Source of the DNA: an uncultured beta proteobacterium
Lineage (GTDB): Bacteria; Pseudomonadota; Gammaproteobacteria; Burkholderiales; SG8-41
Length of the DNA: 64,000 bases
Assembly (NCBI GenBank): GCA_963828715.1
Contig: CAWHFX010000002.1
Span: forward strand, 617,847-681,846
Direction of reading: 5' to 3'
How positions within the stretch are numbered: position 1 is the stretch's first letter; every line of letters starts with the position of its first letter. Shown here piece after piece: positions 612 through 39,434 of this stretch. A program made the position numbers and the translations under genes. Under the pieces are notes generated by a model, which made no database searches, was not told the DNA's origin, and saw nothing but the letters and a program-made list of their open reading frames with translations.

Positions 612-629
612 AATTGGACTTTGGTCCCA
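612..629. repeat. palindrome family copy a: AATTGGACTTTGGTCCCA
   Basis: Read directly and cross-checked against an overlapping ORF translation. Sits in the gap between the secreted-protein stop (670) and the DUF3141 start (490). Confidence 0.9.
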
Positions 630-669
630 GCACCCGGTGGTGGCGTTACTGCGGTTTGTTACGGTCTTC

Positions 670-1254
670 TCATTTCTTCGCGTCGGACTTCGCTGATCCG
701 CCTTCCGCCATCATTTGCAACGCAACCGCTTCTACGTACGTAATCCCGATCGTGTCGCCGACAGCCATGTCGTCGAAGCTTTTCACCTCGTCGGCAACTT
801 TGAGTGCCATCTCGTTCTTTTGCGGTCCCTGCACCGTGATCGTGCGCGTCGGGCGGTCGATCGCTGTGATCAGGGCCGTAATCTGCTTCGTCTGAACGAT
901 AGTGCCGCCCGGTGTGCCGCCCTTGGGCGCAACCTTGACGGTCCGACCTCCGGATTCCGAAGCAACCCCGCCTTTGTTGAGCGACAGTGCGAGCGCTTCC
1001 GTGTAACGTGCCTTGAACTTGTCGCCGGGCTTCACGCGGTCCAGATTCTGCGCCTCGGCTGGAACGATGAAGGTGAACGTAGCACCGGTCGGCCCGCGGA
1101 CGGTCGCGTGACGCGTCTTGCGATCGATCGAAACCAGCTCGACGATGGCTTCGCTTTCCTGCACCGCCACAGCGGAAGCCTGCGGCGGTTTATCGGCCGC
1201 TGTTGATATCGCCGTCAGAGAAGTGAGAATCGCAGCAAAGAGAATGCGCTTCAT
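670..1254 (-). CDS. secreted protein of unknown function with two internal ~60 aa repeats
   Basis: ORF 670..1329. The likely start is the ATG at 1252-1254 (MKRILFAAILTSLTAISTAADK, a signal peptide). Two repeats share IDRxTRxxTVxGP...GD...YxEAxAL. Confidence 0.6.
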   Translation of the reverse strand: MKRILFAAILTSLTAISTAADKPPQASAVAVQESEAIVELVSIDRKTRHATVRGPTGATFTFIVPAEAQNLDRVKPGDKFKARYTEALALSLNKGGVASESGGRTVKVAPKGGTPGGTIVQTKQITALITAIDRPTRTITVQGPQKNEMALKVADEVKSFDDMAVGDTIGITYVEAVALQMMAEGGSAKSDAKK

Positions 1255-1338
1255 GACAAAGGCCTTTCGAGTTGGTTGGAAGAGTCGGCACGAGCATGCG
1301 CGCCGCATGCATCCTCGCTTGCCGTCCATTTGGACGCT

Positions 1339-1355
1339 ATTGGCCTTTGGTCCCG
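1339..1355. repeat. palindrome family copy b: ATTGGCCTTTGGTCCCG (plus an extra TTGGAC half-site at 1330-1335)
   Basis: Read directly. Sits in the gap between the K+ channel stop (1379) and the secreted-protein start (1254). Confidence 0.85.
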
Positions 1356-1378
1356 GCGCTCAAAAGCGCGGGCGCGCG

Positions 1379-1726
1379 TCACTCGGTGCTCTCGCGCTCC
1401 TCGGGCGGGTGAAGTGCCTGCTGCAGCGCCTGCACGGCAACCGCCGTTACGAGGCCCACGGCCATGACACCCGTCAAGCCGATCGTGATTGCGCATACGC
1501 GCGAAAGCGTGCGCTTCGGCACGAGATCGCCGTAGCCGATGGTGAGACCGGACACGAACGCGAAGTAAAGCCCGTCACCGAGGTGCCAGCGCTCGAGAAC
1601 CGCCACGAGCATCCCGATGCCCATCATCAGTACGAGCAGGATGGACAAAATAGGCCAGATCACCCTGAGGCCCGCGCACAGATTCGCCACAAACCGCCGC
1701 GTAAGTGGATTTAGCGTAAGCGGCAC
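1379..1726 (-). CDS. small two-TM potassium channel (KcsA-like pore-only, Ion_trans_2 type)
   Basis: 115 aa with two hydrophobic helices flanking a pore helix and the selectivity filter TIGYGD (FVSGLTIGYGDLVP). GTG start 4 nt after the atpC stop. Confidence 0.8.
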   Translation of the reverse strand: MPLTLNPLTRRFVANLCAGLRVIWPILSILLVLMMGIGMLVAVLERWHLGDGLYFAFVSGLTIGYGDLVPKRTLSRVCAITIGLTGVMAVGLVTAVAVQALQQALHPPEERESTE

Positions 1727-1730
1727 CGAC

Positions 1731-2153
1731 TCAGCGTTGCCTGAACCTGCGCAGCGCTGTCAACTGTGCGGCGAGCGCGGCGATTTCCGCTTCTACTGCG
1801 GCAACCTCCTGTTTGTCGCGAGCGCGGCCGCGTGCCTCTTCCGCCTTTTTCAAGGCTTCGTTCGCCCGCGCTTCGTCGAGGTCCGCCCCTCGAATTGCCG
1901 TGTCCGCGAGAACCGTCACCACCGTGGGCTGGACTTCGAGCAGCCCTCCCGCAACGAAGATCAGATCTTCCTCCCCGCCGCCGGCCGGCTTGATGCGCAC
2001 GGCGCCCGCTCTGATGCGGGTGATGAGCGGGGTATGGCGCGGATACACGCCGAGCTCGCCCGCTTCTCCGGGCAGCACGACGAACTCGGCCTCGCCGGAA
2101 TAGATGCTCTCTTCCGCGCTTACGACATCGATGTGCAGCGTGGCAACAGCCAT
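1731..2153 (-). CDS. atpC: F1 ATP synthase subunit epsilon
   Basis: 140 aa. [54 protein letters not shown] is a typical epsilon beta-sandwich, followed by a helical A/E/R-rich C-terminus. ATG at 2151-2153. Confidence 0.9.
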
Positions 2154-2178
2154 GACTCGAATTCTCCGGATCGGGCGC

Positions 2179-3042
2179 TCAAACGGCAGCAGCGCCCCCG
2201 ACGATTTCGGCGATTTCGCGCGTGATCGCCGCCTGTCGGTTCTTGTTGTAGATCAGCGTCAGCTCGTCGATGAGAGCCCCTGCGTTGTCGGAGGCAGCCT
2301 TCATTGCGACCATGCGCGCCGCCTGTTCGGACGCCATGTTCTCGGCGATGGCCTGATGAATAAGCGCTTCGATATAGCGCGTCATCGCCGCGTCGATCAC
2401 CGTCTGCGCTTCCGGCTCGTAGATGTAGTCCCACAGCCCCTCCGGGGCGCCCAGCCGTTCTCCGGCGAGCGGCAGGAGTTGTTCGTTCACCGGCTCCTGT
2501 TTCATCGTGTTGACGAAGCGCGTATAGACCATCGAGAGACGGTCGATGCGCCCGTCGATGTACGCGTCAAGGATGACTTTGACGGCGCCCAGCAGCATCT
2601 CCATGACGGGCCTGTCGCCGAGCTGGGTCACGTATGAGACGACGTTGGCACCGAGCCGCTGCATGAAACCGAGCGCGCGTCCGCCGATCGCACACACGTC
2701 CACTTCGACCCCTTCCGTCTCCCAGCGGCGCATTTCCTGTAAAGCGAGCCGCAGCGCATTCACGTTCATCCCGCCGCACAGACCTTTGTCGGTGCTCACG
2801 ACGATGATTCCGATACGCTTTACGGACTTGCGCTGGATGAGAAACGGGTGGCGGTATTCCGGATTGGAATGGCTCATATGCGCCGCCAGATTGCGAATCT
2901 TCTCGCCGTACGGCCGGCTCGCACGCATTCGCTCCTGCGAACGCCGCATCTTCGATGCGGCCACCATCTGCATTGCGCGGGTGATCTTGCGCGTGCTTTC
3001 AACGCTGCGGATCTTGACGCGGATCTCTTTGGTGCTCGCCAT
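2179..3042 (-). CDS. atpG: F1 ATP synthase subunit gamma
   Basis: 287 aa with canonical gamma termini: [34 protein letters not shown]... and ...[25 protein letters not shown]. Confidence 0.92.
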
Positions 3043-3082
3043 TACCGTCGGTTCCTGTCTGCACGACCGAGTTCACACATCG

Positions 3083-3550
3083 TCAGGCGGTTTTTCCCGT
3101 GCTCTCGTTTCTAGTTTCTATTGACGCCTCGGGTGCTGCCGGGCTCGCGGGGCTCGACATCCGTGCCTGATCGGGTTGAATGACCCAGGAAATCGCGTCG
3201 AGCAGCGCCTGGTCGTCAACGGGCTTGCGCAAGAAGCAACGCGCATCGAGCTCGCGCGCGCGGAGGCGCGTATCGTCGTCGTCGCGCGCAGAAACGGCGA
3301 TGACAGGAATGGTGCTGCCGCGCGCCTTGAGCTCGCGCTGCACTTGCAGACCCGTCATTCGCGGCATCGTGATGTCAAGAAGAATACAGGCCGGCACTTC
3401 CGGTCCGAGCTCCTGAAGAAAGCGCTCCTGCGATTCGTAGACTCTCGGGGTGAAGCCGCCGGCGCGCATGAGTCGCGCGAGCCCCTTGCGCACGAGCTCG
3501 TCGTCATCGATGATGTATACGACACATGATTTGGCTGGCGCTGGCACCAT
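3083..3550 (-). CDS. stand-alone response-regulator receiver protein (CheY-like, no output domain)
   Basis: VYIIDDDELVRKGL...LLDITMPRMTGL...IPVIAVSARDD...FLRKPVD give the acidic pocket, phospho-Asp and conserved Lys. The tail is low complexity with no HTH. Confidence 0.85.
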   Translation of the reverse strand: MVPAPAKSCVVYIIDDDELVRKGLARLMRAGGFTPRVYESQERFLQELGPEVPACILLDITMPRMTGLQVQRELKARGSTIPVIAVSARDDDDTRLRARELDARCFLRKPVDDQALLDAISWVIQPDQARMSSPASPAAPEASIETRNESTGKTA

Positions 3551-3573
3551 GAATCCCGGTAAGTCGTCCTACG

Positions 3574-4770
3574 CTAAGGGGTGGGCGTAGGACCGGCAAG
3601 TGGACCTTGGTCGCACTCCGCCTCCCCGCCCACCCATGCCTTGAGCAGCGTGTAAACGACCGCCAGCACGACCGGGCCCAGGAAAATGCCGACCAGGCCG
3701 AAGCTCAGCAGCCCGCCGATGACACCGGCAAATACGATGAGCAGCGGCAGGTCGCCGCCGCTGCGCTGGATCAGTATCGGACGCAGCACGTTGTCGATCA
3801 CGCCGACGAAAAGACACCAGACCAGCAGCGCACTGGGTATCCACGCGCTGTCGCTGGTCCAGTACATCCACGCGACCGCCCCGATGAGAATCGGCGCTGG
3901 GCCGATCTGCGCCACGCCGAGCACGAACATGATCACCGTCAGTAAGGCCGCGAACGGTATCCCGGCCACGGCGAAACCGATGCCGCCGAGGGTGCTCTGA
4001 ATCAGCGCGGTCAGGACCACCCCGATCGCGACACTGCGAATGGCGCTGCCCGCGAGAATCAGCACGTTCTCGCCATGCACGCCGGCGAGTCTGCGGAAGA
4101 ACCCGAGCAGCCCGCCGGCGACGCTCTCACCACGAGCAAAAAATATCGCTGCAATCAGCACGGTGAGCAGAAACTGGACAATCAGCATCCCGACACTGCC
4201 GACCTTGGCGACGAGCCAGCTCGCCGCTGCCCGCGCGTAAGGCTGCAGTTTTTCGACAAGCTGTTCCTGCGGCATCCTGGCGACGTCGTTCCAGGTGGCC
4301 ACAATGCGCGGTCCCGCCACCGGCACCTGCTCCACCCACGTCGGCGCCGGAGGCACGCGGACCTGGCGCAGCGTCTGCGCCCACTCTCCGACGTCCTCAG
4401 TATGCGCAACGACGCCCATGATCGCGAATGAGAGCGGCATGACCAGCACCAGCAGCAGTCCCACCGTCATCACCGTGACGGCAGCCCAGCGCTTGCCGCC
4501 CAGTCGTGCCTGTACTCCCAACATTGCCGGCCATAACGCGACCACGATCATGGCGGCCCAGACCATCGCGAATACGAACGGTCTCAGAATCCACAGTGCG
4601 GCCGCGCCCAGAATCACCATGAAGAAGACCGCGATCGTGGTTCGCGCCAGGTCGGCGCCGCGCGCAGAGATCCCCGCCTGTACGGGCTCGGCCTGCAGCG
4701 GCACGGTGGGAACGATGTCAGTGTCCTGCCCGGAGCTGATGATTTCTCGTGCCATCACCGATCGAACCAT
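3574..4770 (-). CDS. AI-2E family (PerM/UPF0118) membrane transporter
   Basis: 398 aa polytopic membrane protein. Segments such as LRPFVFAMVWAAMIVVALWP and DNVLRPILIQRSGGDLPLLIVFAGVIGG resemble the AI-2E family. An alternative ATG lies at 4755. Confidence 0.7.
   Translation of the reverse strand: MVRSVMAREIISSGQDTDIVPTVPLQAEPVQAGISARGADLARTTIAVFFMVILGAAALWILRPFVFAMVWAAMIVVALWPAMLGVQARLGGKRWAAVTVMTVGLLLVLVMPLSFAIMGVVAHTEDVGEWAQTLRQVRVPPAPTWVEQVPVAGPRIVATWNDVARMPQEQLVEKLQPYARAAASWLVAKVGSVGMLIVQFLLTVLIAAIFFARGESVAGGLLGFFRRLAGVHGENVLILAGSAIRSVAIGVVLTALIQSTLGGIGFAVAGIPFAALLTVIMFVLGVAQIGPAPILIGAVAWMYWTSDSAWIPSALLVWCLFVGVIDNVLRPILIQRSGGDLPLLIVFAGVIGGLLSFGLVGIFLGPVVLAVVYTLLKAWVGGEAECDQGPLAGPTPTP
3598..3615. 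repeat. palindrome family copy c: AAGTGGACCTTGGTCGCA
   Basis: Read directly. Lies 48 nt upstream of the receiver gene start (3550), inside the last codons of the AI-2E gene. Confidence 0.8.
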
Positions 4771-5648
4771 CGATACTGGAGCGCAACGGAAATGATTTCG
4801 TAATCACCACCGGCGCGCACAGTGAATCCTTTCGACCATGCAACCTTCCCCGACCAACTCCTGCTGAACGGAACGGAGAGGGTCACACCGTAGCGTGAGT
4901 TGTCCTGCTTGTCGTCGCTGCGGGCCCCGTCCACGGTGGTTCTGCCGCCCGTCACGTAAGCAGCATCCACCGCGAGCCACAGCCCGGGCCTGAAGTTGTA
5001 GCCCATGTGCAGTTGCCCGGAATACAACGCGTCCTGGCTGCGGTGCTTGCCGCCGAAAAAATCGTCGTTGTCGGTATAGAGCCACGCGCCCGCCGACGCT
5101 TCGAAGAACCAGTCGCCGCGCGGATACGAAAAGCCGACCTCCGGCTTGAACGCCCATCGGTTCGTGCCCACGTTGACGAGCCGCGAGGGCACATACTGCC
5201 CGGTCGGCGTAACCACGCTGAGACTTGCCCCGACGGTCGTCTCGGGCGTGCGCCTTGCAAACTCCTGCGGCGTCATCGCGGGATTGCCGATGAAGTTCAC
5301 CGCAAAACGCAGCCGTACGTCGCCCAGCCCCGCGCGATGCACCTGCCGGGCGTCGTCCAACACGTCGCCGCTGATGTCCCCGCGCGCGTACGGCACGACC
5401 AGGCCGAGACTTGCCGTGTGACCCGCCAGTCCGAACGTGCGCGCATACCCGAGAACGTACAGATCGATCTTCGCCTGCACGTTCTTGATCGGCAGCGACG
5501 GATCGGTCAGAACATCTCCGTCCAGCCGCGTGTAGTTGAGGACGGCGAAGTTCGTTCCCACCGGCGCGGCCGAGTATGCTCGTGGCTCCAGGTCCTGCGC
5601 CCGCGCTCCCGCACAGATGAGCATCAGGACGATTGCCGCACGAGCCAT
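4755..5648 (-). CDS. outer-membrane beta-barrel transporter, MetA-pathway (phenol degradation)-like family
   Basis: ORF 4755..5867. The likely ATG is at 5646-5648, giving the signal peptide MARAAIVLMLICAGARAQDLEPRAY. Also shows AAPVGTNFAVLNYTR and an alternating beta-strand pattern to the C-terminus ALQYRWFDR. Confidence 0.65.
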   Translation of the reverse strand: MARAAIVLMLICAGARAQDLEPRAYSAAPVGTNFAVLNYTRLDGDVLTDPSLPIKNVQAKIDLYVLGYARTFGLAGHTASLGLVVPYARGDISGDVLDDARQVHRAGLGDVRLRFAVNFIGNPAMTPQEFARRTPETTVGASLSVVTPTGQYVPSRLVNVGTNRWAFKPEVGFSYPRGDWFFEASAGAWLYTDNDDFFGGKHRSQDALYSGQLHMGYNFRPGLWLAVDAAYVTGGRTTVDGARSDDKQDNSRYGVTLSVPFSRSWSGKVAWSKGFTVRAGGDYEIISVALQYRWFDR

Positions 5649-5841
5649 AAGGCAGAGCGAACCACATGTGGTGTCTCCGAGCAGGGAATGCGTTACCGCT
5701 GGTCTCTCCCCGTCACCCGACGGCGGCTGTGCCCAATATGGTGAGTGAGGTGTGCATGGGATCTCCCGAAGTACCATACAGGCGCACAAGCCGCACATCG
5801 GATTGTGCAGCGACAAGCTAAATCGGCGGCTTAGTGCGGGC

Positions 5842-5859
5842 AATTGGACGAAGGTCCCA
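5842..5859. repeat. palindrome family copy d: AATTGGACGAAGGTCCCA
   Basis: Read directly. Sits in the gap between the histidine kinase stop (5935) and the OMP start (5648). Confidence 0.9.
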
Positions 5860-5934
5860 TGCGTCATAACCGTTTGTTGCGAGGTGGGTATGTCGCCGCC
5901 CGCGCGTTGCGCGGGGCGCGCGCCGCTACGCGAA

Positions 5935-8900
5935 CTATTCGCTGTATGCCGGGACGGTGAAATGAAAGGTAGTGCCGTGATCCGGATTGTTTTCCGCCCA
6001 CAGCCGCCCGCGATGCGCCTCGATGATCGTGCGGCAGATCGAAAGGCCCATACCGAGCCCGTCCCGCTTCGTCGTGTAGAACGGCTGGAATATCCTGCCC
6101 AAGTCCTCGCTACTGAGGCCGGGGCCGCAGTCGCAGATCGAGACGCGCGCCATCGCTCCTTCGTCAGCCGCAGCGCGCACCTGGACCTTTCGAGCCTCGG
6201 CCGGCGTGTTCTTCATGGCGTCGAAAGCGTTGAGAAGGATGTTGAGTACGACCTGCTGCAGCTGTACCGCGCCACCGCGCACGGCCGGAAGGTCGTCCTC
6301 GACCTCCACGAAGATGCGAATGTCCTGCAGAATGGCATCGCCGTGAACGAGCGCGACAACTTCGCGAACGACGCTCCCTACATCGACGGCTCCGAATTCG
6401 CGACCGTTTTCTTCCTTTTTTACCAGAGCCCGTGTCTGCCGAATGATCTCGGCCGCGCGATGGTCGGCCGAGACGATGTCGTTCAGCGCTTCGCGCACTT
6501 CTTGCAGGTTGATCGGTTCGTATTCCATGAACCGCAACGCGGCCCTCGCATTGCTGAGTATCGCAGCGAGCGGCTGATTCAGTTCATGCGCGAGCGAGGC
6601 GGTGAGCTCTCCCATGATGGCGACGCGCGCAACATGGGTGAGTGCCGCACGCTGTTCCTGCAACTGTATTTCCGTTTGCCTGCGAAGCGTGATGTCGGTC
6701 GATGCGCCAAGAACGTCGTTTGCACGGCCGTCCACACCGATGAGCGGCCGCTTCACGGTCTGCAGCCAGCGGACCCGGCCTCGTGTATCGGTGATGCGCT
6801 CTTCCGGGATGAAGCGCTCCTGCAGCGTGTCCATCACTTCGAGATCCACGTTCCGAAAGAATCGAATCTCTTCCGGGTTTCGATTGAAATCAGCGTCCGT
6901 CCTGCCGATCAACCCGTTCACCGTCACGCCATACACGTCGGCCACGGCTTTGTTTGCCAGCGTGAAACGTCCTTCGCGATCTTTGGCGAAGATGAAGTTC
7001 GGATTGACGTCGATCACCTGGCGCAGGAACGCACGCTCCTTTCTCAGCGACTCTTCCGCTGCTTTGCGCTCCGTCACGTCCATGCACGAACCGATGTAAC
7101 CGAGGAAGATGCCGTCGGGCTGAAACCGCGGCGCCCCATGGTCGAGTATGTAACGGTATTCGCCATCCCATCTCCGGAGGCGATATTCCATACGGAACTG
7201 CGCGCGATTGTCGAACGCGGCGCCGTATACGGCGAGACAGCGCTCGAGGTCGTCTGCGTGCACGTCCCGGGTCCAGCCATCGCCGAGCTCCTGATCCAGA
7301 GTGCGGCCGGTAAAATCGAGCCACGCCTCGTTGAAAAAGGTGCACAGCTTATCCGTTCCCGACATCCAGATCATCGCGGGTGCGGCGTTGGCCATCGTGC
7401 GGAACCTGTCTTCGCTCTCCCGTAGTTTCTCCTCTGCCTGCCTGCGCTCCGTCAGATCCAAAACCACACCCATCCTGCGGGTGTGGCCACTCGACGTCGG
7501 GACCGTGCGACCGCGGGCAAGAACCCACCGTTCCGTGCCATTTGGAAGGCTGATGCAGAATTCGGTCTGGAACGGTATTCCCTTTGCCTGCGCACGCTCC
7601 ATCTCTCCGATCGCACGCGCGCGATCGCTCCAGTGCACGCGCGCCAGCGCATCCTCGAAGTGCGCTGGCTCCTGCGGACCCAGGTCGAAGAGACGGCGCA
7701 TCGACGCGTTCGCCCAGAAATCACCGCTTTTTATGTCCCGTGACCACAAGCCCAGCCCGCCGGCTTCGGTGGCCAATGCCATGAGTTGCTGGTTGTGAGT
7801 GAGCGCATCCTGCATGCGGCGCAGCCGACTTCGCTGAACGGCGAGCGCAACGATCGTCGCGCTCTGCATGACGATGATGAGGAGAGCCGCCGTGATATAC
7901 CAGCGATACTGCTCCCATATCGACTCGGGTCTGAAGCGGACGATGCTGCCCGGCGGCAGGCGACTCTCGTCGATGCTCCATCGCTTGAGGGCGCGCCAGT
8001 CGAACATGGGCACGGTTGCTGTGAGAACTTCGAAGCGAAGCGCTTCCTCCGCTGCACCTGTCAGCGTGCGTCGCGCGAGCTCACCCGCGCGCTGCCCGAA
8101 AGCCTCGATGCTGGCGACCGATCCCCCGACCGCACCGGTACCGAAAGCACCGTCGGACAGTACGTAAACCGGTGCATTCGCCCATTCGCTCAGCCACCGT
8201 CCCACCTGGGCTGAAATGGTCGCTTGTCCCGCCCCGTCCTGAAACATTCTCGTGAACAGGATGGCGCTTCGCGGCGGGAGGTGCGTTGCGCGTTCACGCA
8301 ACTCGCTCACGCGCACGTTGTTCCAGATCTGAATGTCGAGCTTTCCCTTCAGGCCGTGGGCGGCAGACTCGACGCGCCGGAGCAACTGTCGGTCGATCTC
8401 TGCAGTCCCCGCCACGATCACCAGTCGCTCCAAGGAAGGCTGCAGGCGCAGGATCACCCTCAACGTCGCCTCAGGGTCCGTGCGCTGCGCGAAGCCTCCG
8501 ACGCTGCTTCCGAATTCGTCCTCTCGAAGCACCTCCTCGGTCAGGCCGGCAACGATCACCGGTGTCGCGGGAAACAGTTCCGACAAGATTTTGCCAGGGG
8601 GCGCAACACTGCCGACGAAGAGCAGCATGATCAGATCGGGCGGATAGTCGGCGTATTTCTCCGCGAGGTACTCGGCGAATATCCGCTGGGAACGCTCGGC
8701 GGGAAATCTGACGGTGTCGAGATTCTCGGCATAGATCTCCACCTTGGGCGCCGGCGTCCTGTTCAAAGCGGCGAGGATCTGCTGATCGACGATGATGAAG
8801 CCCGGCGCCAATCGGCTGCCCGTCGAAATCAGCAACAAGCGTTTTACAGGACCAGTTCCCGGCTCGGCGGCATGCGTAAACGAAGCAGCGAAACAGGCCA

Positions 8901-8991
8901 CTAGTAGAGCGAGCACCGTCCACTGCAGCGATCCCTGCGTCAGCCGCCATCCAGTGTGCGAAACAGTACTCCGTCGCGTCGCGGTCCCCAT
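5935..8991 (-). CDS. sensor histidine kinase with a periplasmic solute-binding-like domain, multiple PAS domains, HisKA and HATPase
   Basis: ORF 5935..9063 has a GTG at 9063; the ATG at 8989-8991 is preferred. Order of parts: signal-anchor, ~300 aa periplasmic domain, a TM segment, about three PAS-like repeats, H-box LAHELNQPLAAI, then ATPase boxes NLLLNAFDAM, DCGPGL and GLGMGLSICR. Confidence 0.85.
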   Translation of the reverse strand: MGTATRRSTVSHTGWRLTQGSLQWTVLALLVACFAASFTHAAEPGTGPVKRLLLISTGSRLAPGFIIVDQQILAALNRTPAPKVEIYAENLDTVRFPAERSQRIFAEYLAEKYADYPPDLIMLLFVGSVAPPGKILSELFPATPVIVAGLTEEVLREDEFGSSVGGFAQRTDPEATLRVILRLQPSLERLVIVAGTAEIDRQLLRRVESAAHGLKGKLDIQIWNNVRVSELRERATHLPPRSAILFTRMFQDGAGQATISAQVGRWLSEWANAPVYVLSDGAFGTGAVGGSVASIEAFGQRAGELARRTLTGAAEEALRFEVLTATVPMFDWRALKRWSIDESRLPPGSIVRFRPESIWEQYRWYITAALLIIVMQSATIVALAVQRSRLRRMQDALTHNQQLMALATEAGGLGLWSRDIKSGDFWANASMRRLFDLGPQEPAHFEDALARVHWSDRARAIGEMERAQAKGIPFQTEFCISLPNGTERWVLARGRTVPTSSGHTRRMGVVLDLTERRQAEEKLRESEDRFRTMANAAPAMIWMSGTDKLCTFFNEAWLDFTGRTLDQELGDGWTRDVHADDLERCLAVYGAAFDNRAQFRMEYRLRRWDGEYRYILDHGAPRFQPDGIFLGYIGSCMDVTERKAAEESLRKERAFLRQVIDVNPNFIFAKDREGRFTLANKAVADVYGVTVNGLIGRTDADFNRNPEEIRFFRNVDLEVMDTLQERFIPEERITDTRGRVRWLQTVKRPLIGVDGRANDVLGASTDITLRRQTEIQLQEQRAALTHVARVAIMGELTASLAHELNQPLAAILSNARAALRFMEYEPINLQEVREALNDIVSADHRAAEIIRQTRALVKKEENGREFGAVDVGSVVREVVALVHGDAILQDIRIFVEVEDDLPAVRGGAVQLQQVVLNILLNAFDAMKNTPAEARKVQVRAAADEGAMARVSICDCGPGLSSEDLGRIFQPFYTTKRDGLGMGLSICRTIIEAHRGRLWAENNPDHGTTFHFTVPAYSE

Positions 8992-9229
8992 CTGTTCGTT
9001 CGTGCGGCTACGCCAGCGCCGGCTCGGATGCAGGCGTTGGTGGGGGGTTCCAGGAAATTGCACGTATCATCGCACACTTCCAAGTACGCCCTGCAGCCCG
9101 GGAATGCATCTACCGGTCGCGCCGTGCCGAGCCTCTTTTGAGGTCCCGGAGACGAACGTAGTCACCTGATCGTGCCGTCCTGCGGTCTCATAGCCGGCTG
9201 ATTATCCGAGGGTCAGGCCGCCGCTCAAG

Positions 9230-9249
9230 AATTGGACCAAGGTCCAATT
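9230..9249. repeat. palindrome family copy e: AATTGGACCAAGGTCCAATT (9-nt perfect arms)
   Basis: Read directly. Lies upstream of the histidine kinase and 45 nt upstream of the small + ORF 9294. Confidence 0.9.
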
Positions 9250-9293
9250 TTGGGCGCTTCGCCTCTGCGCTAACTTCGCCCCTGCAGCTATCG

Positions 9294-9578
9294 GTGGCGC
9301 CGGCGGTTGATGCGGCACGAGGCGCGGCATTCCGAATCCATTTCACAGGTTCCAAGAAGAACATGATGGCGGTTCTCAAGTCACTCATCTATTCGGCAGC
9401 AACGATTGGCGCGACCGTAGTCAAGGGCGCGGGCGGCTCTCAATTCCAGAACGACAAGGATGTGTTCCTCAGCGTGAAAAACAAGAGCGAAGGCATCGAG
9501 CTGAATCTGGGTGAGGCTCGTTGGTGTAAACATCGAGTTCTCGAAGTGATCGATACACGCTTCTACCGGTATTCATGA
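9294..9578 (+). CDS. hypothetical small protein (weak call)
   Basis: 94 aa ORF in a locally A+T-richer stretch upstream of atpB. An internal MMAVLKSLIYSAATIGATVV start is possible. I see no recognisable family and it is not AtpI-like. Confidence 0.25.
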   Translation: MAPAVDAARGAAFRIHFTGSKKNMMAVLKSLIYSAATIGATVVKGAGGSQFQNDKDVFLSVKNKSEGIELNLGEARWCKHRVLEVIDTRFYRYS

Positions 9579-9695
9579 ATCTGGTGCCGTCGTTCGCGGC
9601 AGGCTCAGTTCATCTCCCCTTGAGCTTGTCGTCGGGCGGCGGACACCGGACCTTCCACCACCGCAACTGCGCAGGGTACAGATTTCGTGATGTAG

Positions 9696-10613
<918 letters not shown>

Positions 10614-10625
10614 GACCGGAAGTAA

Positions 10626-10934
<309 letters not shown>

Positions 10935-10959
10935 TCGATTCCGGCGCTTTCGAGTTTCC

Positions 10960-11430
10960 ATGAACATCAATCTCACCCTGATCGCCCAGGCGGCGACCTT
11001 CGCGCTGTTCATCTGGTTTAGCGCGCGCTTCATTTGGCCCTATCTGATGGCGGCGATGGAAGCGCGGCAGAAGCAGATTGCCGAGGGACTGGCGGCGGCC
11101 GAACGCGGACGCCAGGACCTGGAGCAGGCTGCGGTACGGACCGCCGATATGCTCAAGGAAGCGCGCCAGCAGGCGCAGGAGATCCTCGCCCAGGCTGAGC
11201 GTCGCGCCGCGCAGATCATCGAAGAGGCGAAGGGGGCGGCCACGCAAGAGGGTCAACGGCTGGTCGCCGGTGCGAAGGCCGAGATCGAGCAGGAAGTGGC
11301 GCGCGCGCGCGAGACGCTGCGCACGCAGGTCGCGGCGCTGGCGCTGGCCGGCGCGGAGCAGATTCTGCGCCGCGAGGTGGACGCGCGGGTGCACGCGGAG
11401 CTGCTCTCGAGCTTGCAGAACCAGCTCTAG
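10960..11430 (+). CDS. atpF: Fo ATP synthase subunit b
   Basis: 156 aa. N-terminal TM segment ([20 protein letters not shown]), then a long charged helix ([11 protein letters not shown]...), in the expected operon position. Confidence 0.9.
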
Positions 11431-11437
11431 CGCGATC

Positions 11438-11974
11438 ATGGCTGAGCTCATTACCGTCGCGCGCCCGTATGCCGAAGCCGCCTTCAAGCTGGCGCGCGAA
11501 GCGAATGCGCTCGAGCACTGGTCGGACATGCTGGCGCTGATCGAAGGGGTGGTGAGCGATGAGAACATCGCCTCGCGTGTGGGCGACCCCAATGTCGATG
11601 AGCGGGCGCTCGAAGGGGTGATTCTCGGTGCCGCGGGCGAGCGGCTCGACGGGCCCGCACGCAACCTGGTGCAGTTACTCATTGAAAACGGGCGGCTCGA
11701 TCTGGTGCCGCAGGTACGCACGCTGTTCGAAGCCCTGAGGCGCGAGCAGGAAGGGGTAGTGGAGGCGCGCATCATCTCGGCGCTGCCGATCGCAGAAGAG
11801 CAGGTGCGGCCGTTATTGGAGGCGCTCGAACGCAAGTATGGCCGCAAGGTCAATGCGCAGGTCGAGATCGAGCCGGAGTTAATTGGCGGGGTGCGCATCA
11901 TCGTGGGCGACAAGGTGATCGACGCGACGGTACGCGGGCGGCTTGAATCGATGGCGGTGGCGCTCGCGCACTAG
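11438..11974 (+). CDS. atpH: F1 ATP synthase subunit delta (OSCP)
   Basis: In the frame of ORF 11078..11974, ATG at 11438. MAELITVARPYAEAAFKLA... and ...IGGVRIIVGDKVIDATVRGRLESM are typical of delta. Confidence 0.9.
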   Translation: MAELITVARPYAEAAFKLAREANALEHWSDMLALIEGVVSDENIASRVGDPNVDERALEGVILGAAGERLDGPARNLVQLLIENGRLDLVPQVRTLFEALRREQEGVVEARIISALPIAEEQVRPLLEALERKYGRKVNAQVEIEPELIGGVRIIVGDKVIDATVRGRLESMAVALAH

Positions 11975-11995
11975 GCAAGGACAAGGAGTCATGAC

Positions 11996-15054
<3,059 letters not shown>

Positions 15055-15368
15055 GAGAGGCGGCACATCTCGACGACGCCACCGGGGCCGGTTGAGTAGC
15101 GGGATTGGTGGCGAGCGGCAGCGGCGGCGCGGAAGTCGAACCCGTATAGCGGCTGCTGACTCGTGAGCGCGTGAAATCCACACGAAATGGCGCTGGGGGG
15201 CAGAGCCGCTAAGCCGAATCGACTGTCCCGGCGGACTTTGGGTCGCCCAGGCGCGACAACTCGATGTGCATGGTAAGACCGCGGTCGGTACGCCGACGTC
15301 CATGGCCGGAAATGCGATCCCTGCTGGCACACGATCGCCCGGGCAAACACGACGTAGGAAAGCAGCGC

Positions 15369-16547
15369 CTACTTGACCTGCTCGAGCACCCAGTTCGGAA
15401 TATCGCCGGTGTTGGGCGGAACGGTCATCCAATGGTCGGGCTTCTTCGCCATCGCGCGTCCCGCGTCGAACGCCGCCCGCATCTGTTTCGGATCGAAAGC
15501 AAGCGGGTCGTTGCCGATATCTACGTCGTTGGGAATGGCTGCCAATTTGAAGTTATAGCCCAAGAACTTGGCGCCGAAATACGAGCGCGTCATTGCCGTG
15601 AGCATCGACTGGTCCATCATGACGCTGACGGTCGTGGCCGCCACGTCACCGAGAGCCCTGCGCAAAGCCCCGGGCGGGCTATGCAGCCTGCCGTTGTCGA
15701 TCAGGTATATGTTTCCCGCTCCATAGAGCGGAGGCGGGGCACGCTCGGACCCGCCCAATCCCGCAATGACGACATTCGAACGGGCCGCGCCGTCGACGAA
15801 CAGGTGACCGTCGATTTCCACCGGCGGGAACACAATGGGAAACGATGCGGAGGCGAGCAATACCTGGTGATAAAGCTCCAGGTTGCCGTCCTTCGCGATC
15901 AGCGACATGTTCCAGATCCAAGTCTGGCCGTAATCGATGTTGGTCGTACCTATGAAGAGGTATCGGTTGTCGTTGTACGCGGCAGCCACGCGCTTCAGGG
16001 TGTCCGCGGTAATGTATTTGGCGATGAGCGCCCGCAGCGGTGCGGTGTCCGAGAGTGAATCGGCGCCGAACGCGAGGCTGAAGATCCCTCTTTCGCTATG
16101 GATATTTTTCTTGCTGATCTGGGTGTACATCTCTTCGAGCTGCGCATCGTCGGCCGGCGTGCCGAGCAGCGCGTGGGTCGCCAGCAAGGCGCCGGTGCTC
16201 ACCCCGCCAACCATATCGAACTGGGGGCGTTGACCGCTTTCGCGCCAACCGTTCAGCAGGCCCGCACCGAACGCGCCGTTCTGGCCGCCGCCCGAGAGGG
16301 ACAGCATATTGAGCGCGCGGCCTAGCTTGCGTTCCAGCAGGCGCACGCCATTCGGTTCCCCCTCTGTAGCGGCGGCGTACATGGGCGAAACCCGTTGCGG
16401 ATTGAGCGGATCCATTCCGTTCGGCAACATGGCATACGCCGGACTCTTTTGCGAAAGCACCCTTCCCGGAGGGGACGCACATCCCGCGAGCAGCAGCGCG
16501 CCGACCGCCGTCGCAAAAACGGTCAATTTTTCGTGTCGCATGGCCAT
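15369..16547 (-). CDS. patatin-like phospholipase, predicted lipoprotein
   Basis: ORF 15369..16733, ATG at 16545-16547. Lipobox LLLAGC, oxyanion SGGGQNGAFGAG, nucleophile elbow GVSTGA (GxSxG) and catalytic Asp motif FVDGAA. Confidence 0.85.
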   Translation of the reverse strand: MAMRHEKLTVFATAVGALLLAGCASPPGRVLSQKSPAYAMLPNGMDPLNPQRVSPMYAAATEGEPNGVRLLERKLGRALNMLSLSGGGQNGAFGAGLLNGWRESGQRPQFDMVGGVSTGALLATHALLGTPADDAQLEEMYTQISKKNIHSERGIFSLAFGADSLSDTAPLRALIAKYITADTLKRVAAAYNDNRYLFIGTTNIDYGQTWIWNMSLIAKDGNLELYHQVLLASASFPIVFPPVEIDGHLFVDGAARSNVVIAGLGGSERAPPPLYGAGNIYLIDNGRLHSPPGALRRALGDVAATTVSVMMDQSMLTAMTRSYFGAKFLGYNFKLAAIPNDVDIGNDPLAFDPKQMRAAFDAGRAMAKKPDHWMTVPPNTGDIPNWVLEQVK

Positions 16548-16653
16548 CCTTTTGTCTGCACCGCAGAACGTCCTTAAATAGATACGGCGACGCGGTAACG
16601 TGGGGGACAATCGTATTCCTCGTCGAAAGCATCTACGAAAAGTGCGCGAGATT

Positions 16654-17694
16654 TCATTGTGCTCCCATCCCGGGCAGCCCCGCGCGTATACGGCGCGAAA
16701 AGTCCGGAGCGTTGTCTGCGGCACGCGCCGCATCGTTGACCTGGGACCGGCGCATGAACTCGTGGAACGGCAGGCTCGTGTCGAGTCGACCCGTCTCGTA
16801 CACGTACTCCGGCGTGTACCCCGAGACCAGTATCTTCCACGAATAGGCGAGATGATCCGGGTTCACGCGGGCGTTCATCAGGATTCCGGTCGTGCAATTC
16901 GTCAACAGCGTGTTGTAGAACTCAGGCTGAGCGCGCAGCCGGTTGATGGCGTTGATGTATTCCAGGAAAAACCGCCGCCCGTTCTCAATCGGACCCTTCA
17001 CGCGCAGAAGGTAGACGTCCTCCGGCGGATCCTTACGGTAGTTGGTGCGTAGCCGTATCAAGTCGCGTTCGTCGCCCACGATGTAAATCAGCTCGTACTG
17101 CCGGAAAAAGCCGCCGAGCGTCGAGTAGTCTTCAGTGCGCTCCTTGCGCGCCTCGATGGAGACGGCGAGGTGATCGTCTCCAAAACCGAAAGTCACGAAG
17201 AGGTGCGCGATGGCAGGTCCCATCCAATAGGCAGCGACCAAATCCACGCTGTCGAGCTGACGCAGATCGAAGGTGCGGTCGTAGTAACGCGGAGTGAAGT
17301 CGGTTTCGGTGCGATAGTCGAAGTTGCGGATGTTGTGGACGGTCACGAGATCGCCGTCGATCGTGGCATGCGGAAGCTCCGAGACCTCGGCACGCCATTC
17401 GCGATCATTCGACGGTTGAATACCGCTCCACCAGATCACGAGTGTCACGAGCATGATGCCGAAGGTTGCGAGGCTCGCCTGACGCCAGCGGGGAACGAAG
17501 AGCGCGCCTATTGCGCCAAGGCCGACGATGACAGGGATGATCGCGAGTGCCGCGCGCATGTGCTCTTCATTCGGGCCGGTGAAATAGAGAAGCCCCGCCC
17601 CCCACGCACTCGAGCAGGCGATTGTCAGCCCGGCAACGACAACGCCCGCCATACGACTTGCGTTACGCGCGGGAAATCGCCGGGGCGGGCTCAC
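16654..17694 (-). CDS. DUF4105 (Lnb N-terminal periplasmic domain)-family membrane protein
   Basis: 346 aa. N-terminal TM segments, then SNDREWRAEVSELPHATIDGDLVTVHNIRNFDYR...WMGPAIAHLFVTFGF, which I recognise as DUF4105-like. GTG at 17694, alternative ATG at 17652. Confidence 0.6.
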   Translation of the reverse strand: MSPPRRFPARNASRMAGVVVAGLTIACSSAWGAGLLYFTGPNEEHMRAALAIIPVIVGLGAIGALFVPRWRQASLATFGIMLVTLVIWWSGIQPSNDREWRAEVSELPHATIDGDLVTVHNIRNFDYRTETDFTPRYYDRTFDLRQLDSVDLVAAYWMGPAIAHLFVTFGFGDDHLAVSIEARKERTEDYSTLGGFFRQYELIYIVGDERDLIRLRTNYRKDPPEDVYLLRVKGPIENGRRFFLEYINAINRLRAQPEFYNTLLTNCTTGILMNARVNPDHLAYSWKILVSGYTPEYVYETGRLDTSLPFHEFMRRSQVNDAARAADNAPDFSRRIRAGLPGMGAQ

Positions 17695-17786
17695 ATCTCG
17701 TTGTGCTTTCCTGGTTTGTGTCGGCTGAAATTTGCGAAACTCTGGGCCTCTGGGGCGCCATTTCAGACTCGGCCATCCGCTCGAGC

Positions 17787-17804
17787 TATTGGACCTTGGT
17801 CCAC
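17787..17804. repeat. palindrome family copy f: TATTGGACCTTGGTCCAC
   Basis: Read directly. Lies 94 nt upstream of the DUF4105 gene start (17694). Confidence 0.9.
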
Positions 17805-17936
17805 TGTCGGCAAGTTCTCGTGAGTTTCACTTATCGTGCGCGCAAGGGACTTCGTGCCCGCCATGACGAGAGGACTGGGTGACGCTCGTGCGGTGGGTAT
17901 CGCAATCGCGAACGCGGTGAGCCGAAGGAGGGGCGG

Positions 17937-17971: not shown

Positions 17972-18002
17972 TTTCGGGGACCTGAGTCCCGCCCGCGGTA
18001 CG

Positions 18003-18035: not shown

Positions 18036-18200
18036 AGTCCCTCAGGTCGGGACCCCCGCCTGTGCCGTCAGGTCTGAACTCTTGAACCTGCGGTTCAAGA
18101 TGGTCGCCTTCCGAGCCCTTCAGGCGCTTCCCATTGGGACGCGCACACCAGGCAACTATAGTCGGCAACGCGAGGTACCCTATTGGCTCAGAGAATTAGA
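18036..18200 (-). ncRNA. ssrS: 6S RNA (ends approximate)
   Basis: Lies directly downstream of zapA, as in E. coli (zapA-ssrS). The minus strand reads AATTCTCTGAGCC... (compare E. coli AUUUCUCUGAG), with a CTTGAACCGCAGGTTCAAG hairpin (compare E. coli CCUUGAACCAAGGGUUCAAGG). The 3' CCTGAGGGA can pair with the 5' end, and a terminator follows. Confidence 0.75.
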
Positions 18201-18256
18201 CCTAAAATACGAACACCGCAGGGGAAGCTTTTGAACGGTCAGAGCTCAGGCCGATT

Positions 18257-18949: not shown

Positions 18950-19170
18950 GCAGCAACCGAAAGGGTGCTCGGTGCCCGCGCGATGCGAGCCCGGGATAAA
19001 CGGGAAACAGGTGTAAGACCTGTGCTGCCCCCGCAACGGTAAGCGAGAGGTGGTGCTCCATTGGGAGCACCACTGGCGTGCGCCATATGCCACTGGGCTT
19101 GAAAGCCCGGGAAGGCGGAGCGCGTTTTCGCGAGCCCGTATACCGGCCCAGTCGGCGATTCTGGTAGACG
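18950..19170 (+). promoter_or_regulatory. cobalamin (B12) riboswitch, boundaries approximate
   Basis: Conserved core GGGAAACAGGTGTAAGACCTGTGCTGCCCCCGCAACGGTAAGC, then GCCACTGGGC...GGGAAGGC, and a B12-box-like GAGCCCGTATACCGGCCC. Sits directly upstream of a TonB-dependent receptor. Confidence 0.8.
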
Positions 19171-19293
19171 AGCCGCGGGGTGTCGTGCTTCTGCCTGCAT
19201 CAGGGCCGCGCAGGTCCTGATTGCGGCCGCCGGGCCTCTCGCCTCGTCGTGTTCGTTCACGGGCGCGCGGCGGGCGCGCCTCGCGAGGCATCA

Positions 19294-21369
19294 ATGAAAG
19301 CGGTTATTCCTGCGCTCGCGGTCTGTACGGCCGCTACGTCAACCTTTGCTTCCGAAGTTCCTGTCACCCGAGGCGATCCGGTCGTCGTCACCGCGACCCG
19401 GTTCGAAGAGCGCCTCACCGACCGTCCGATCAACATGACCGTCATCTCGCGCGAGCAGATCGAAGCGAGTCCGGCACGCACGGTGCCCGATATTCTGGCG
19501 GAGCAGACGGGCATCAACATTCACGACTTCTTCGGCAACAACGCCTCGACGACGACGGTGGACATGCGCGGTTTCGGTATCACGGGAGCCCAGAACACGC
19601 TGGTCCTGGTCGATGGCCGGCGCGTCAACGATATCGATCTCTCCGGGGTGCAATGGTCCGCGATGCCGCTGAGTGCGATCGAGCGCATCGAGATCGTGCG
19701 CGGCGGCGGCAGCGTGCTCTACGGCGAAGGCGCGACGGCGGGCGTGATCAATATCATCACGCGATCGCCGGGACCCGGGAAGAGCTTCGCCATTCGGGGA
19801 TCGGCCGGCAGCTACGGCATGCATGAAGGCACCGTCGAGGGAAGTATCGGCAACAACACCGCCGCGCTGTCGGTGTACGGGGACGCCTTCGAATCGAACG
19901 GCTACCGCGCGAACAATCACAACCGCCAAACCAACGGCATGGCCGATCTCCGCTGGAATACGGGGTTGGGCGATTTCTCGCTCAAGGTGAGCACCGACAG
20001 TCAGGGCATTCGCCTGCCGGGTGCGCGGCAGGTACAGCCGAGCGCCGGGGTCGACGAGCTGGCGACCGACCGCCGCGGCACGTCCACGCCACTCGACTGG
20101 TCGCAGCGCGACGGCAACCGGGCGCTCCTCGACTGGCGGTATCGGTTGGGCGCGTGGGAGCTCAACCTCGGCGGCGGCTGGCGCGACAAGACGCAGAAGT
20201 CGTTCTTCGATTTCGGCGGCTTTCCCGATTACCGCGAAGCCCAGCTGGGCGTGTGGTCGGTCACGCCGCGCGCGAAGCTCGATGCGCCGCTCTTCGGGCG
20301 GCCCAACACGTTTGTGATCGGTCTCGACTGGTATTCGTGGGATTACGAGCTGCGCCGTTCGAGCGCGACCACCACGATCGCCCGTCCTTTCAACACGGTC
20401 AATGCGACGGAGGACACCGTCGGCGTTTACTTCCTCGACACGATCACGATCACCGACGCGCTCGTCGCGAGCGCCGGCGGCCGCCGCGAACGACTGAAGA
20501 TCGATGCGACCGACTTCTTCGATCCGAACGCACCCGGCGGTGCATTCGGGTCCGGTGCGCCTGCCGGCTCGCAGCGGCTTTACGAGAGCGCATACGAGCT
20601 CGGCGTGCGTTATGAATTCACACCTGCCACCGCGGCCATTGCGAAAACCTCGAAAAGCTACCGGTTCGCCAACGTCGATGAAATCTACGAGACGTCCGCC
20701 TCGTTCACCAACCAATTCCAGTTTCTGCAGCCGCAGACGGCGCGCACGCACGAGCTTGGATTGGAAGCGCGCGTTGCGGACATTGCGACGCGAGCCTCGG
20801 TGTTCGAGATCGACGTGGACAACGAAATCCATCTCGATCCGTTCACGAGCGGCGTGGGCAACCGCAACCTGCCGCCGTCGCGGCGCCGCGGCTTCGAGCT
20901 CGAGGCCTCAGCGAGGCCACTTCCTCGCCTGAGTCTCGGGGGCAATTACACCTACATCGAGGCGCGTTTCCGCGAGGGCGTGCTTGCCGGCGACCCGTTC
21001 ACGCAACAAAACGTCGTCATTGCGGGCCGCACCGTGCCGCTCGTTCCGCGCCACAAGATCGGGCTGCGCACGTCATGGGATTTCACGCCGGCAACGCGTC
21101 TCAGCGTGCTGGCGCGGTACGTGAGCTCGCAGTTCATGGACAACGACGAAGGAAATACGCTCGGCACGAAAATACCGCCGTACAAGGTGGTCGATATGAA
21201 GCTCGCGCATCGCCGCGGTCCGCTGACGATCGCCGCGACCGTGAACAACCTCTTCGGCGAGAAGTACTTCAATTACGCCGTGCGCAGTCAGTTCGTGCCG
21301 GATCGCTACAACGCCTACCCGCAGCCGGAACGAAGCGCATTCGTCACAGTCGAGTACGCGTTGCGGTAG
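19294..21369 (+). CDS. btuB: TonB-dependent outer-membrane receptor, probably for cobalamin/corrinoid
   Basis: ORF 19180..21369, ATG at 19294. Signal peptide, TonB-box-like DPVVVTATR, and plug motif IERIEIVRGGGSVLYGEGATAGVINIIT. The substrate is inferred only from the riboswitch. Confidence 0.8.
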   Translation: MKAVIPALAVCTAATSTFASEVPVTRGDPVVVTATRFEERLTDRPINMTVISREQIEASPARTVPDILAEQTGINIHDFFGNNASTTTVDMRGFGITGAQNTLVLVDGRRVNDIDLSGVQWSAMPLSAIERIEIVRGGGSVLYGEGATAGVINIITRSPGPGKSFAIRGSAGSYGMHEGTVEGSIGNNTAALSVYGDAFESNGYRANNHNRQTNGMADLRWNTGLGDFSLKVSTDSQGIRLPGARQVQPSAGVDELATDRRGTSTPLDWSQRDGNRALLDWRYRLGAWELNLGGGWRDKTQKSFFDFGGFPDYREAQLGVWSVTPRAKLDAPLFGRPNTFVIGLDWYSWDYELRRSSATTTIARPFNTVNATEDTVGVYFLDTITITDALVASAGGRRERLKIDATDFFDPNAPGGAFGSGAPAGSQRLYESAYELGVRYEFTPATAAIAKTSKSYRFANVDEIYETSASFTNQFQFLQPQTARTHELGLEARVADIATRASVFEIDVDNEIHLDPFTSGVGNRNLPPSRRRGFELEASARPLPRLSLGGNYTYIEARFREGVLAGDPFTQQNVVIAGRTVPLVPRHKIGLRTSWDFTPATRLSVLARYVSSQFMDNDEGNTLGTKIPPYKVVDMKLAHRRGPLTIAATVNNLFGEKYFNYAVRSQFVPDRYNAYPQPERSAFVTVEYALR

Positions 21370-37845: not shown

Positions 37846-38392
37846 CGGTGGTTCCTTGAATTAACGCGCGATTTTACACGAAGTCACTGATTCGTTGCAG
37901 TTTATCGGCTTACTTATCCTGCGGTGAAACCTGAGCCGAGCGATGTCGGGACTGCAGACCCTCCAGGCTGGCGAAATCTCGTGGGCTCGCATGCGACCGT
38001 AGTCCGATATGAGGCAAGGCGCGCCGCTCCGAGTTCCGCAGACTGCTCACATTCCGATTGCCCACGGTCCGAGTTGTCGTGCGGGCGTGAGCCGGCGCGG
38101 CAGAAAGACGTTTTGAAGCGTCGTTCAGGACGTACTATTTCTGGCCAAGTCTCTGAAAAACTGAGGACAACTTGAAATTGAAGACCGTAACGACGCTTTA
38201 CGAAGCGTCGTTTATGAACACTGCTTCTCGTTGAACTAAACCGCTTCTCGGTGGTTGTCGCACTGCCTGCTGTTCTCTCCGCGCTGGTCGATAGTCGATT
38301 GCCGTTGCTGATCGTGCGGGCCGCGAGGACGCTGGTGCGCCTGTGTCAGGCTGTTTTCGGGAATGTTCCCGAGCTTGATACAGGAGACCGTG

Positions 38393-38470: not shown

Positions 38471-38478
38471 GCTTTAGT

Positions 38479-39363: not shown

Positions 39364-39434
39364 AGAAAGATAGGCTAAGAACACGCGCGGACTTTGTCTA
39401 CCGCCGTCGCTTCGCGAAGCCGCGAACGGCCCTG

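Follow-up and report, generated by a model that had tools for sequence, protein, structure and literature searches.

The lux and tra boxes are inverted repeats of about 18–20 bp that lie over the −35 element of weak sigma-70 promoters, as class II sites centred near −42.5, and the DosR/DevR box of Mycobacterium (TTSGGGACTWWAGTCCCSAA; consensus GGGACT-WW-AGTCCC) is read by a protein whose recognition helix begins EKTVK. The FixJ box of the fixK and nifA promoters (TAAGTAATTTCCCTTA) is also a palindrome of 16–18 bp near −35, with FixJ footprints covering −69 to −31 (PMC4999443), and the Tod/STY box of TodT and StyR (ATAAAC-N4-GTTTAT; PMC5874301) consists of inverted half-sites of 6–7 bp set 4 bp apart. 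EL222, the LOV-helix-turn-helix (HTH) protein of Erythrobacter litoralis, follows the consensus RGNCY-WW-RGNCY (PMC10521638), of which the C120 operator TAGGTAGCCTTTAGTCCATG is an example, and an EL222 site that overlaps −35 activates sigma-70 transcription in E. coli (PMC5001607). Here we describe an 18-bp palindrome with the core GGAC-N4-GTCC, six copies of which lie in the first 18 kb of a 64,000-nucleotide stretch (the window) of contig CAWHFX010000002.1 from an uncultured beta proteobacterium. We propose that it is most probably bound, as an operator, by a dimeric response regulator of the FixJ/NarL family (a receiver joined to a LuxR/GerE HTH) that has EL222-type specificity and would activate an 18-kb island of seven transcription units, among them the genes of a complete F1Fo ATP synthase.

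An 18-bp palindrome conserved beside kinase orthologues

The PAS histidine kinase encoded in the window served as the probe for relatives, yielding three kinase loci among species-representative genomes (42–46% identity; Binatia and 'delta proteobacterium' metagenome-assembled genomes (MAGs)) and about 20 further loci in metagenomes (49–62% identity), in addition to same-species contigs. The 18-bp palindrome ATTGGACYWWRGTCCAAT recurs in these unrelated soil metagenome and MAG loci together with kinase orthologues of 42–62% identity, and its perfect form there is ATTGGAC-YWWR-GTCCAAT. Across the loci with kinase orthologues (155.8 kb) we found 18 perfect and 6 one-mismatch 18-mers, where 0.0004 and 0.019, respectively, are expected; the loci with distant kinases only (193 kb) hold no perfect copy and a single one-mismatch copy. 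Variation between the relatives' sites (C or T at Y, A or G at R, AA or TT at the centre) is confined to the degenerate positions. Four strain variants, L016, L030, L044 and L045, are 98–99% identical to the window and too close for footprinting, bar two polymorphisms: within sites, L045 departs from the window at two positions, both of them degenerate (Y and R). Copy 1 is unchanged in L016, L044 and L045.

In the window (63% G+C), 12 strand-hits match the pattern TTGGACN4GTCC when up to one mismatch is allowed; shuffled sequence gives 3.6 ± 1.8, and a count of 12 is not reached in any of 100 shuffles. A position weight matrix (PWM) trained solely on sites of other organisms (L002–L004), for which the null maximum has a mean of 5.4 and a 95th percentile of 10.8 bits, was then scanned over the 64 kb and has its top four positions at copies 5, 6, 4 and 1, in descending order (Table 1; coordinates refer to the + strand, with 18-mers aligned to ATTGGACNNNNGTCCAAT). 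An earlier reading of this DNA, made from the letters alone and referred to below as the sequence-only reading, had placed six copies in the first 18 kb, and all six are there, four strong and two weak; the copy that it gave as 9230–9249 does have perfect 9-nt arms, with an AA centre. It had assigned the copies to non-coding gaps, whereas copy 3 is within coding sequence, at the final codons of the AI-2E transporter gene. Its degenerate copy at 15232–15249 has no PWM score and was rejected. The PWM scan likewise agrees that 18–64 kb has no credible copy, the best hit there (37989–38010, 10.3 bits) being at noise level.

All seven transcription units of the island have a copy whose centre is 57–203 nt ahead of the start codon. 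These units are the DUF3141 operon, the gene of a secreted 194-aa protein, the receiver–atpG–atpC–K+ channel operon, the genes of an outer-membrane protein (OMP) and the AI-2E transporter, the kinase gene, atpBEFHAD, and the DUF4105–patatin pair. A copy upstream of each minus-strand unit had been noted before; copy 5, which is flanked by the kinase gene (−) and the atp operon (+) in divergent orientation and is common to both, additionally serves the plus-strand operon. Read in gene direction, the window sites have the consensus xTGGGACC-WW-GGTCCAAT, and the half-site near the promoter (GGTCCAAT) is kept far better than the distal half.

In L004 (12655–12700), a perfect site is followed 12 nt on by a second copy with a 3-nt rather than a 4-nt centre (TTGGACCAAGTCCAAT); it looks like a local duplication or an assembly indel, and the kinase gene there is fragmented. 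A one-mismatch copy, TTTGGACAAAAGTCCAAT, occurs at 1151–1168 of L007, a Calditrichaceae contig of 37% G+C, near a distantly related kinase and outside the −10 register described below; its presence may mean that other phyla have the motif too, or may be due to chance (expected number about 1e-3). In the window, an everted half-site pair, GTCCATTTGGAC at 1324–1335, lies 4 nt from copy 2 on its promoter side, at the −35 position, and may compensate for the weakness of that copy or be fortuitous.

The candidate regulator and its specificity

In eight relatives (L002, L003, L017, L019, L024, L028, L032 and L037) the locus has the order site, kinase, regulator, site, receiver-only gene, as far as each contig reaches. 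The regulator, 206–260 aa long and composed of a receiver and a LuxR/GerE HTH, is encoded directly behind the kinase orthologue in nine loci, including L025, whose 4.3-kb contig carries kinase and regulator but no palindrome. Where the contigs continue, the receiver-only gene is followed by that of a 560-aa protein of no known family, and an extra copy of the palindrome often precedes the kinase gene. Three further loci, L053, L054 and L055, were chosen through the regulator alone and have a perfect site just behind the regulator gene.

Of this arrangement, the window retains the kinase with its preceding site and the pair of site and receiver-only gene, without the regulator. Its receiver-only gene is the first behind copy 3, a position equivalent to that of the site ahead of the receiver-only gene in L002, L003, L017, L019, L028 and L054; the encoded protein is 36–39% identical to the receiver-only proteins behind the site in relatives, and no HTH was found in it (3083–3550). 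The closest Protein Data Bank entries to the kinase core are chimeric kinases with a FixL kinase core (E 1e-46), and FixL-like cores are the type that partners FixJ-family regulators. We infer that the sensor of the system is the window kinase, a role that the sequence-only reading had not given it. Its first 450 residues have no family match, and it scores 277.7 bits on the NCBIfam FixL model, for which the cut-off is 850, while the top NCBIfam model for the relatives' regulators is FixJ at 222.6 bits (cut-off 255). We rejected membership of the FixLJ system proper, as both proteins fall below these equivalog cut-offs, no evidence of a haem PAS domain was found and there is no fixK target.

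Over its full length, the regulator has StyR (E 1e-58) and FixJ as its best solved relatives. With the HTH domain taken by itself, EL222 (E 2e-15, helix SEKTVKMHRGLVMEK) is the nearest solved protein, followed by StyR and FixJ: EL222 and the relatives' regulators share EKTxKxHR..VMEK, where StyR has EVTVKVHRHN and FixJ has PRTIEVYRAN, and the recognition helix in the relatives, EKTIKVHRARVMEK, is EL222-like (EL222, EKTVKMHRGLVMEK). TVEKT(I/V)KVHRARVM is common to all motif-associated regulators; those of L034 and L036, which are 47% identical and whose loci lack the motif, have the helix TSERTIKFHRHNVM. The family is very large: at E ≤ 1e-40 it has at least 7,949 members, whose annotation goes no further than 'FixJ family'.

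The DNA side agrees with this assignment. GGACC-WW-GGTCC, the 12-bp core, conforms to the EL222 consensus, which the window cores GGACTTTGGTCC, GGCCTTTGGTCC, GGACCAAGGTCC and GGACCTTGGTCC fit at 12/12 positions and the other two at 11/12; in all 64 kb, RGNCYWWRGNCY has just five matches, four of which are copies of the palindrome. The fifth, at 44112, was rejected as a site, being at noise level, without flanks and within a lipopolysaccharide (LPS) cluster. The systems differ in that the regulators here are phosphorylation-controlled two-component proteins and EL222 is a light-sensing one-component protein, and in that the natural sites here are longer and far more specific (ATTGGAC...GTCCAAT, 14 conserved positions).

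The other described systems are further removed. The Tod/STY box is alike in geometry, regulator family and PAS kinase partner, whereas its half-site sequence differs, the regulon here is not one of aromatic catabolism, and the present regulators have Ala in place of His179, which in StyR is a contact residue together with Lys175 and Val176. FixJ boxes are unrelated in sequence despite the shared geometry and position near −35 and the FixL/FixJ-type kinase and regulator. From lux and tra boxes the element departs in sequence, and the regulators here are no acyl-homoserine-lactone receptors. The DosR/DevR box has a like GGAC-N4-GTCC core, a WW centre, a recognition helix that begins as here, and sites heading many units of a clustered stress or energy regulon; membership was nonetheless rejected, as only the core is shared (flanks TTGGAC against GGGAC) and DevR is distant (E 8e-13 over the full length, 7e-4 for the HTH). 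A CRP/FNR-type site (TTGAT-N4-ATCAA) and the lxa low-oxygen motif of Burkholderia (TGA-N6-TCA; PMC3721108) were rejected because half-site and spacing differ, and no CRP-family gene is present in the window or in the relatives' loci. Literature searches by sequence strings returned primers and unrelated items only, and a search for DUF3300/DUF2950 gave nothing relevant.

The operator might instead serve another LuxR/GerE-type protein, either an EL222-like one-component regulator or the partner of a different kinase. This would suit a window kinase that is an orphan here, a closest solved HTH that comes from a one-component protein, and the regulator of like type in L053, which sits behind a different kinase (MASE1-PAS). 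In every relative with enough sequence, however, the site goes with a receiver–GerE regulator that adjoins a kinase, and the best site of the window is found at the kinase gene, as it is at the orthologues. We consider this alternative unlikely.

Promoter register and direction of control

A −10-like hexamer stands in fixed register with the palindrome. Among 22 non-redundant sites of relatives, TANNNT starts 23–24 nt past the last base of the 18-mer in 13, on the gene side only, and no other offset is seen more than once; most of the remaining sites have TAAAAA, TAAATA or TAACTA at that offset. The sequence after the site is usually ATACA, which together with the final T of the site makes a weak −35 element, TATACA, 17 bp from the −10 hexamer. 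The central dinucleotide is AA towards the gene in 20/22 relatives' sites and in 5/6 window sites, a bias that makes the element directional despite its symmetry. Corresponding hexamers in the window are predicted at copies 3, 4 and 5 (Table 1); the one at copy 3, TAGCGT, includes the TAG stop codon of the AI-2E gene.

The fixed offset places the site centre near −43/−44, as in the lux box, which suggests activation here. From centre to −10 is 31.5 nt, a distance that matches the class II activators of lux and tra boxes; the site lies upstream of −35 and not between −35 and −10, and the adjoining −35 hexamers (TATACA, TAGTCC, TTGCCG) are poor, as at activator-dependent promoters. These features argue against a repressor operator, at which binding would occlude −35 and keep the island silent until a signal removes the protein. 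Repression has points in its favour, in that the site is next to −35 or overlaps it, that an EL222 site inside a promoter can repress (PMC5001607) and that unphosphorylated FixJ has been reported as a repressor in R. palustris (PMC13327599); for the present sites we regard it as quite improbable.

The sequence-only reading had weighed a shared operator for a dimeric regulator against a repetitive extragenic palindromic (REP)-like repeat or transcribed RNA hairpin (GGAC-loop-GUCC), which would act in mRNA stability or termination. The element is palindromic, several of the copies in tandem arrays come immediately 3′ of the gene before them, and copy 3 is within a coding region, all as such a repeat would have it. 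Yet among 14 distinct sites no stem pair is changed on both sides, so that compensatory changes are absent, and 13 departures break the pairing; of 14 terminator-like hits, not one falls on a copy, and the copies are free of T-runs and other terminator features and have no Rfam match. All six copies are upstream of genes in one island, their register and orientation are fixed relative to the −10 hexamers, and in distant lineages (Binatia-type and other soil MAGs) the sequence and not just the pairing is kept, unlike in species-specific REP elements. A repeat or hairpin is thus a highly unlikely explanation, and it is the operator that gains support from the distant conservation beside kinase and regulator, the −10 register and the fit to EL222.

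We conclude that the palindrome is a real cis-regulatory element, most probably a classical LuxR/FixJ-type activator site that involves no new mechanism. In the scheme that we propose, the window PAS kinase, with its FixL-type core, would phosphorylate a regulator encoded elsewhere in the genome, and the phosphorylated dimer would bind the 18-bp operator, ATTGGACC-WW-GGTCCAAT, whose last T would be the first base of the weak −35 element and whose centre would fall at about −43/−44. The bound dimer would then recruit sigma-70 RNA polymerase and co-activate all seven units of the 18-kb island. The sites, their conservation, the company of kinase and regulator genes in relatives, the register with −10-like hexamers and the match to the EL222 consensus are observed; that this regulator binds the sites in this organism, that it answers to a signal and that it activates rather than represses, we infer from the relatives' loci and the promoter geometry.

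Several observations weigh against this scheme. Copies 2 and 3 are individually inside PWM noise and owe their credibility solely to where they lie and to how well they match the EL222-type core, and the promoter-distal half-site is degraded in 5/6 window sites. The −10 hexamers are predictions and are poor at copies 1, 2 and 6, and the kinase-side promoter of copy 5 is out of register by 2 nt. Family searches and a six-frame search with GerE HTH domains found no LuxR/GerE HTH in the 64-kb window, in keeping with the earlier statement that no DNA-binding regulator is encoded there, and strain-variant contigs, which cover ~8 kb to the left, add neither a regulator gene nor another site; the binding protein of this organism would therefore be encoded outside this sequence. 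In every relative with enough sequence, regulator and site co-occur. The assignment of kinase to regulator rests on synteny in organisms whose kinases are just 42–62% identical.

The island and its putative regulon

The gene map (Table 1) was built from Pfam and NCBIfam searches and from translations. The genes of the F1Fo ATP synthase are in two places: atpB-E-F-H-A-D stand together without atpG and atpC, which lie 7 kb off on the other strand, behind the CheY-like receiver gene and ahead of the K+ channel gene. The subunits score as canonical F-type and not as N-ATPase, look gamma/beta-proteobacterial, and include a c subunit with an E. coli-like Asp carboxylate. To the left of window position 1, the strain variant L045 (98.7% identical; 9409–16121) has the order DUF3141 (785 aa)–pta–ackA–CoA transferase A/B–3-hydroxyacyl-CoA dehydrogenase, and by this gene order copy 1 probably heads a substrate-level phosphorylation/polyhydroxyalkanoate-type operon.

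Table 1. Coordinates of the palindrome copies (putative operators), predicted promoter elements, genes and RNA features in the window
Feature	Position	Strand	Details
Operator copy 1	613–630	−	ATTGGACTTTGGTCCCAG; PWM 14.1 bits; core GGACTTTGGTCC fits RGNCYWWRGNCY at 12/12; centre 132 nt ahead of ATG 489 (DUF3141)
Operator copy 2, weak	1339–1356	−	ATTGGCCTTTGGTCCCGG; PWM 8.7 bits; core GGCCTTTGGTCC fits EL222-type consensus at 12/12; centre 93 nt ahead of ATG 1254 (194-aa protein)
Operator copy 3, weak	3599–3616	−	AGTGGACCTTGGTCGCAC; PWM 7.3 bits; core fit 11/12; 57 nt ahead of receiver-only start (3550)
Operator copy 4	5843–5860	−	ATTGGACGAAGGTCCCAT; PWM 18.1 bits; centre ~203 nt ahead of OMP start 5648
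Operator copy 5, perfect palindrome	9231–9248	both sides	ATTGGACCAAGGTCCAAT; PWM 29.6 bits, best of window
Operator copy 6	17788–17805	−	ATTGGACCTTGGTCCACT; PWM 26.4 bits; core fit 12/12; centre 102 nt ahead of DUF4105 start 17694
Predicted −10 TAGCGT (receiver–atpG–atpC–channel)	3571–3576	−	offset 23 from copy 3
Predicted −10 TAGCTT (OMP/AI-2E)	5815–5820	−	offset 23 from copy 4
Predicted −10 TAACTT (atpBEFHAD and the 94-aa open reading frame ahead)	9271–9276	+	offset 23 from copy 5, whose central AA reads in this direction
Predicted −10 GATAAT (kinase)	9201–9206	−	consensus promoter scan, 9/12 positions
Predicted −35 TTGAGC (kinase)	9223–9228	−	16 nt from GATAAT; abuts copy 5
TGAAAT at copy 6	17760–17765	−	offset 23
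DUF3141 gene, 5′ part	1–489	−	Pfam; ATG 489; operon runs on left of window
194-aa secreted protein, no family	670–1254	−	start from gene calls in L013 and L045
Ion_trans_2 K+ channel	1379–1726	−	Pfam
atpC	1731–2153	−	Pfam
atpG	2179–3042	−	Pfam; NCBIfam gamma equivalog, 449 bits
Receiver-only protein (CheY-like, FixJ-type receiver)	3083–3550	−	Pfam Response_reg only
AI-2E transporter	3574–4770	−	
OMP (Phenol_MetA_deg), 297 aa	4755–5648	−	
PAS histidine kinase, 1042 aa	5935–9063	−	Pfam PAS (two), HisKA, HATPase_c
94-aa open reading frame, no family	9294–9578	+	between copy 5 and atpB
atpB, atpE, atpF, atpH, atpA, atpD	9729–15054	+	Pfam, NCBIfam
atpF	10960–11430	+	translation
atpH	~11440–11974	+	gene separate from atpF
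Patatin-like phospholipase	15369–16733	−	Pfam
DUF4105 (Lnb_N)	16654–17694	−	Pfam
6S RNA	18049–18227	−	65.7 bits; directly downstream of zapA
Cobalamin riboswitch	18953–19165	+	94.6 bits; ahead of TonB-dependent receptor
TonB-dependent receptor	19180–21369		behind cobalamin riboswitch

The putative targets of the relatives belong to the envelope: Mla components, DUF3300/DUF2950, OmpA, MipA, ecotin–PliI and the 560-aa protein. Those of this organism have energy functions, namely the F1Fo ATP synthase and the K+ channel and, with L045 taken into account, the DUF3141–pta–ackA–CoA transferase–3-hydroxyacyl-CoA dehydrogenase series. The element is ordinary in kind, while the regulon that it defines is so far undescribed, and we tentatively suggest that it could belong to a very abundant, uncharacterised FixJ-like subfamily of soil bacteria with EL222-type specificity and could represent an energy-stress or dormancy programme with DosR-like logic. 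If so, one signal would turn on the complete F1Fo ATP synthase, the DUF3141–pta–ackA substrate-level phosphorylation operon and envelope proteins, and the gamma and epsilon rotor-stalk genes would have been relocated to a second operon, next to the genes of a CheY-like receiver and a K+ channel. The proposal predicts signal-dependent transcription of the two-operon ATP synthase together with acetate-kinase fermentation genes and the K+ channel. Two-component systems of this kind are common in uncultured soil bacteria, and no function has been described for them; the proposal supplies a precise, testable cis-element and a candidate for the type of regulator, and the 18-mer is directly usable to map the regulon in MAGs.

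The 94-aa open reading frame, the first past the predicted atp promoter, has a gene call in the two independent assemblies L044 and L045 as well. The 6S RNA gene and zapA close the island, and beyond them 19–64 kb holds the cobalamin riboswitch and TonB receptor, ATP-binding cassette exporters and LPS/nonulosonic-acid genes. Within the LPS cluster, 1.6 kb of lower G+C (0.56) at 37846–39435 is without a confident gene call and contains the sole PWM hit outside the island, that at 37989–38010, which we rejected as being at noise level and without flanks. The palindrome GGGACCTGAGTCCC (17978–17989), which follows the 3′ end of the 6S RNA gene at a distance of about 60 nt, has the GGAC-N4-GTCC core; without TTGG/CCAA flanks, it was not counted as a member, and it could be a 3′-end hairpin of the 6S RNA.

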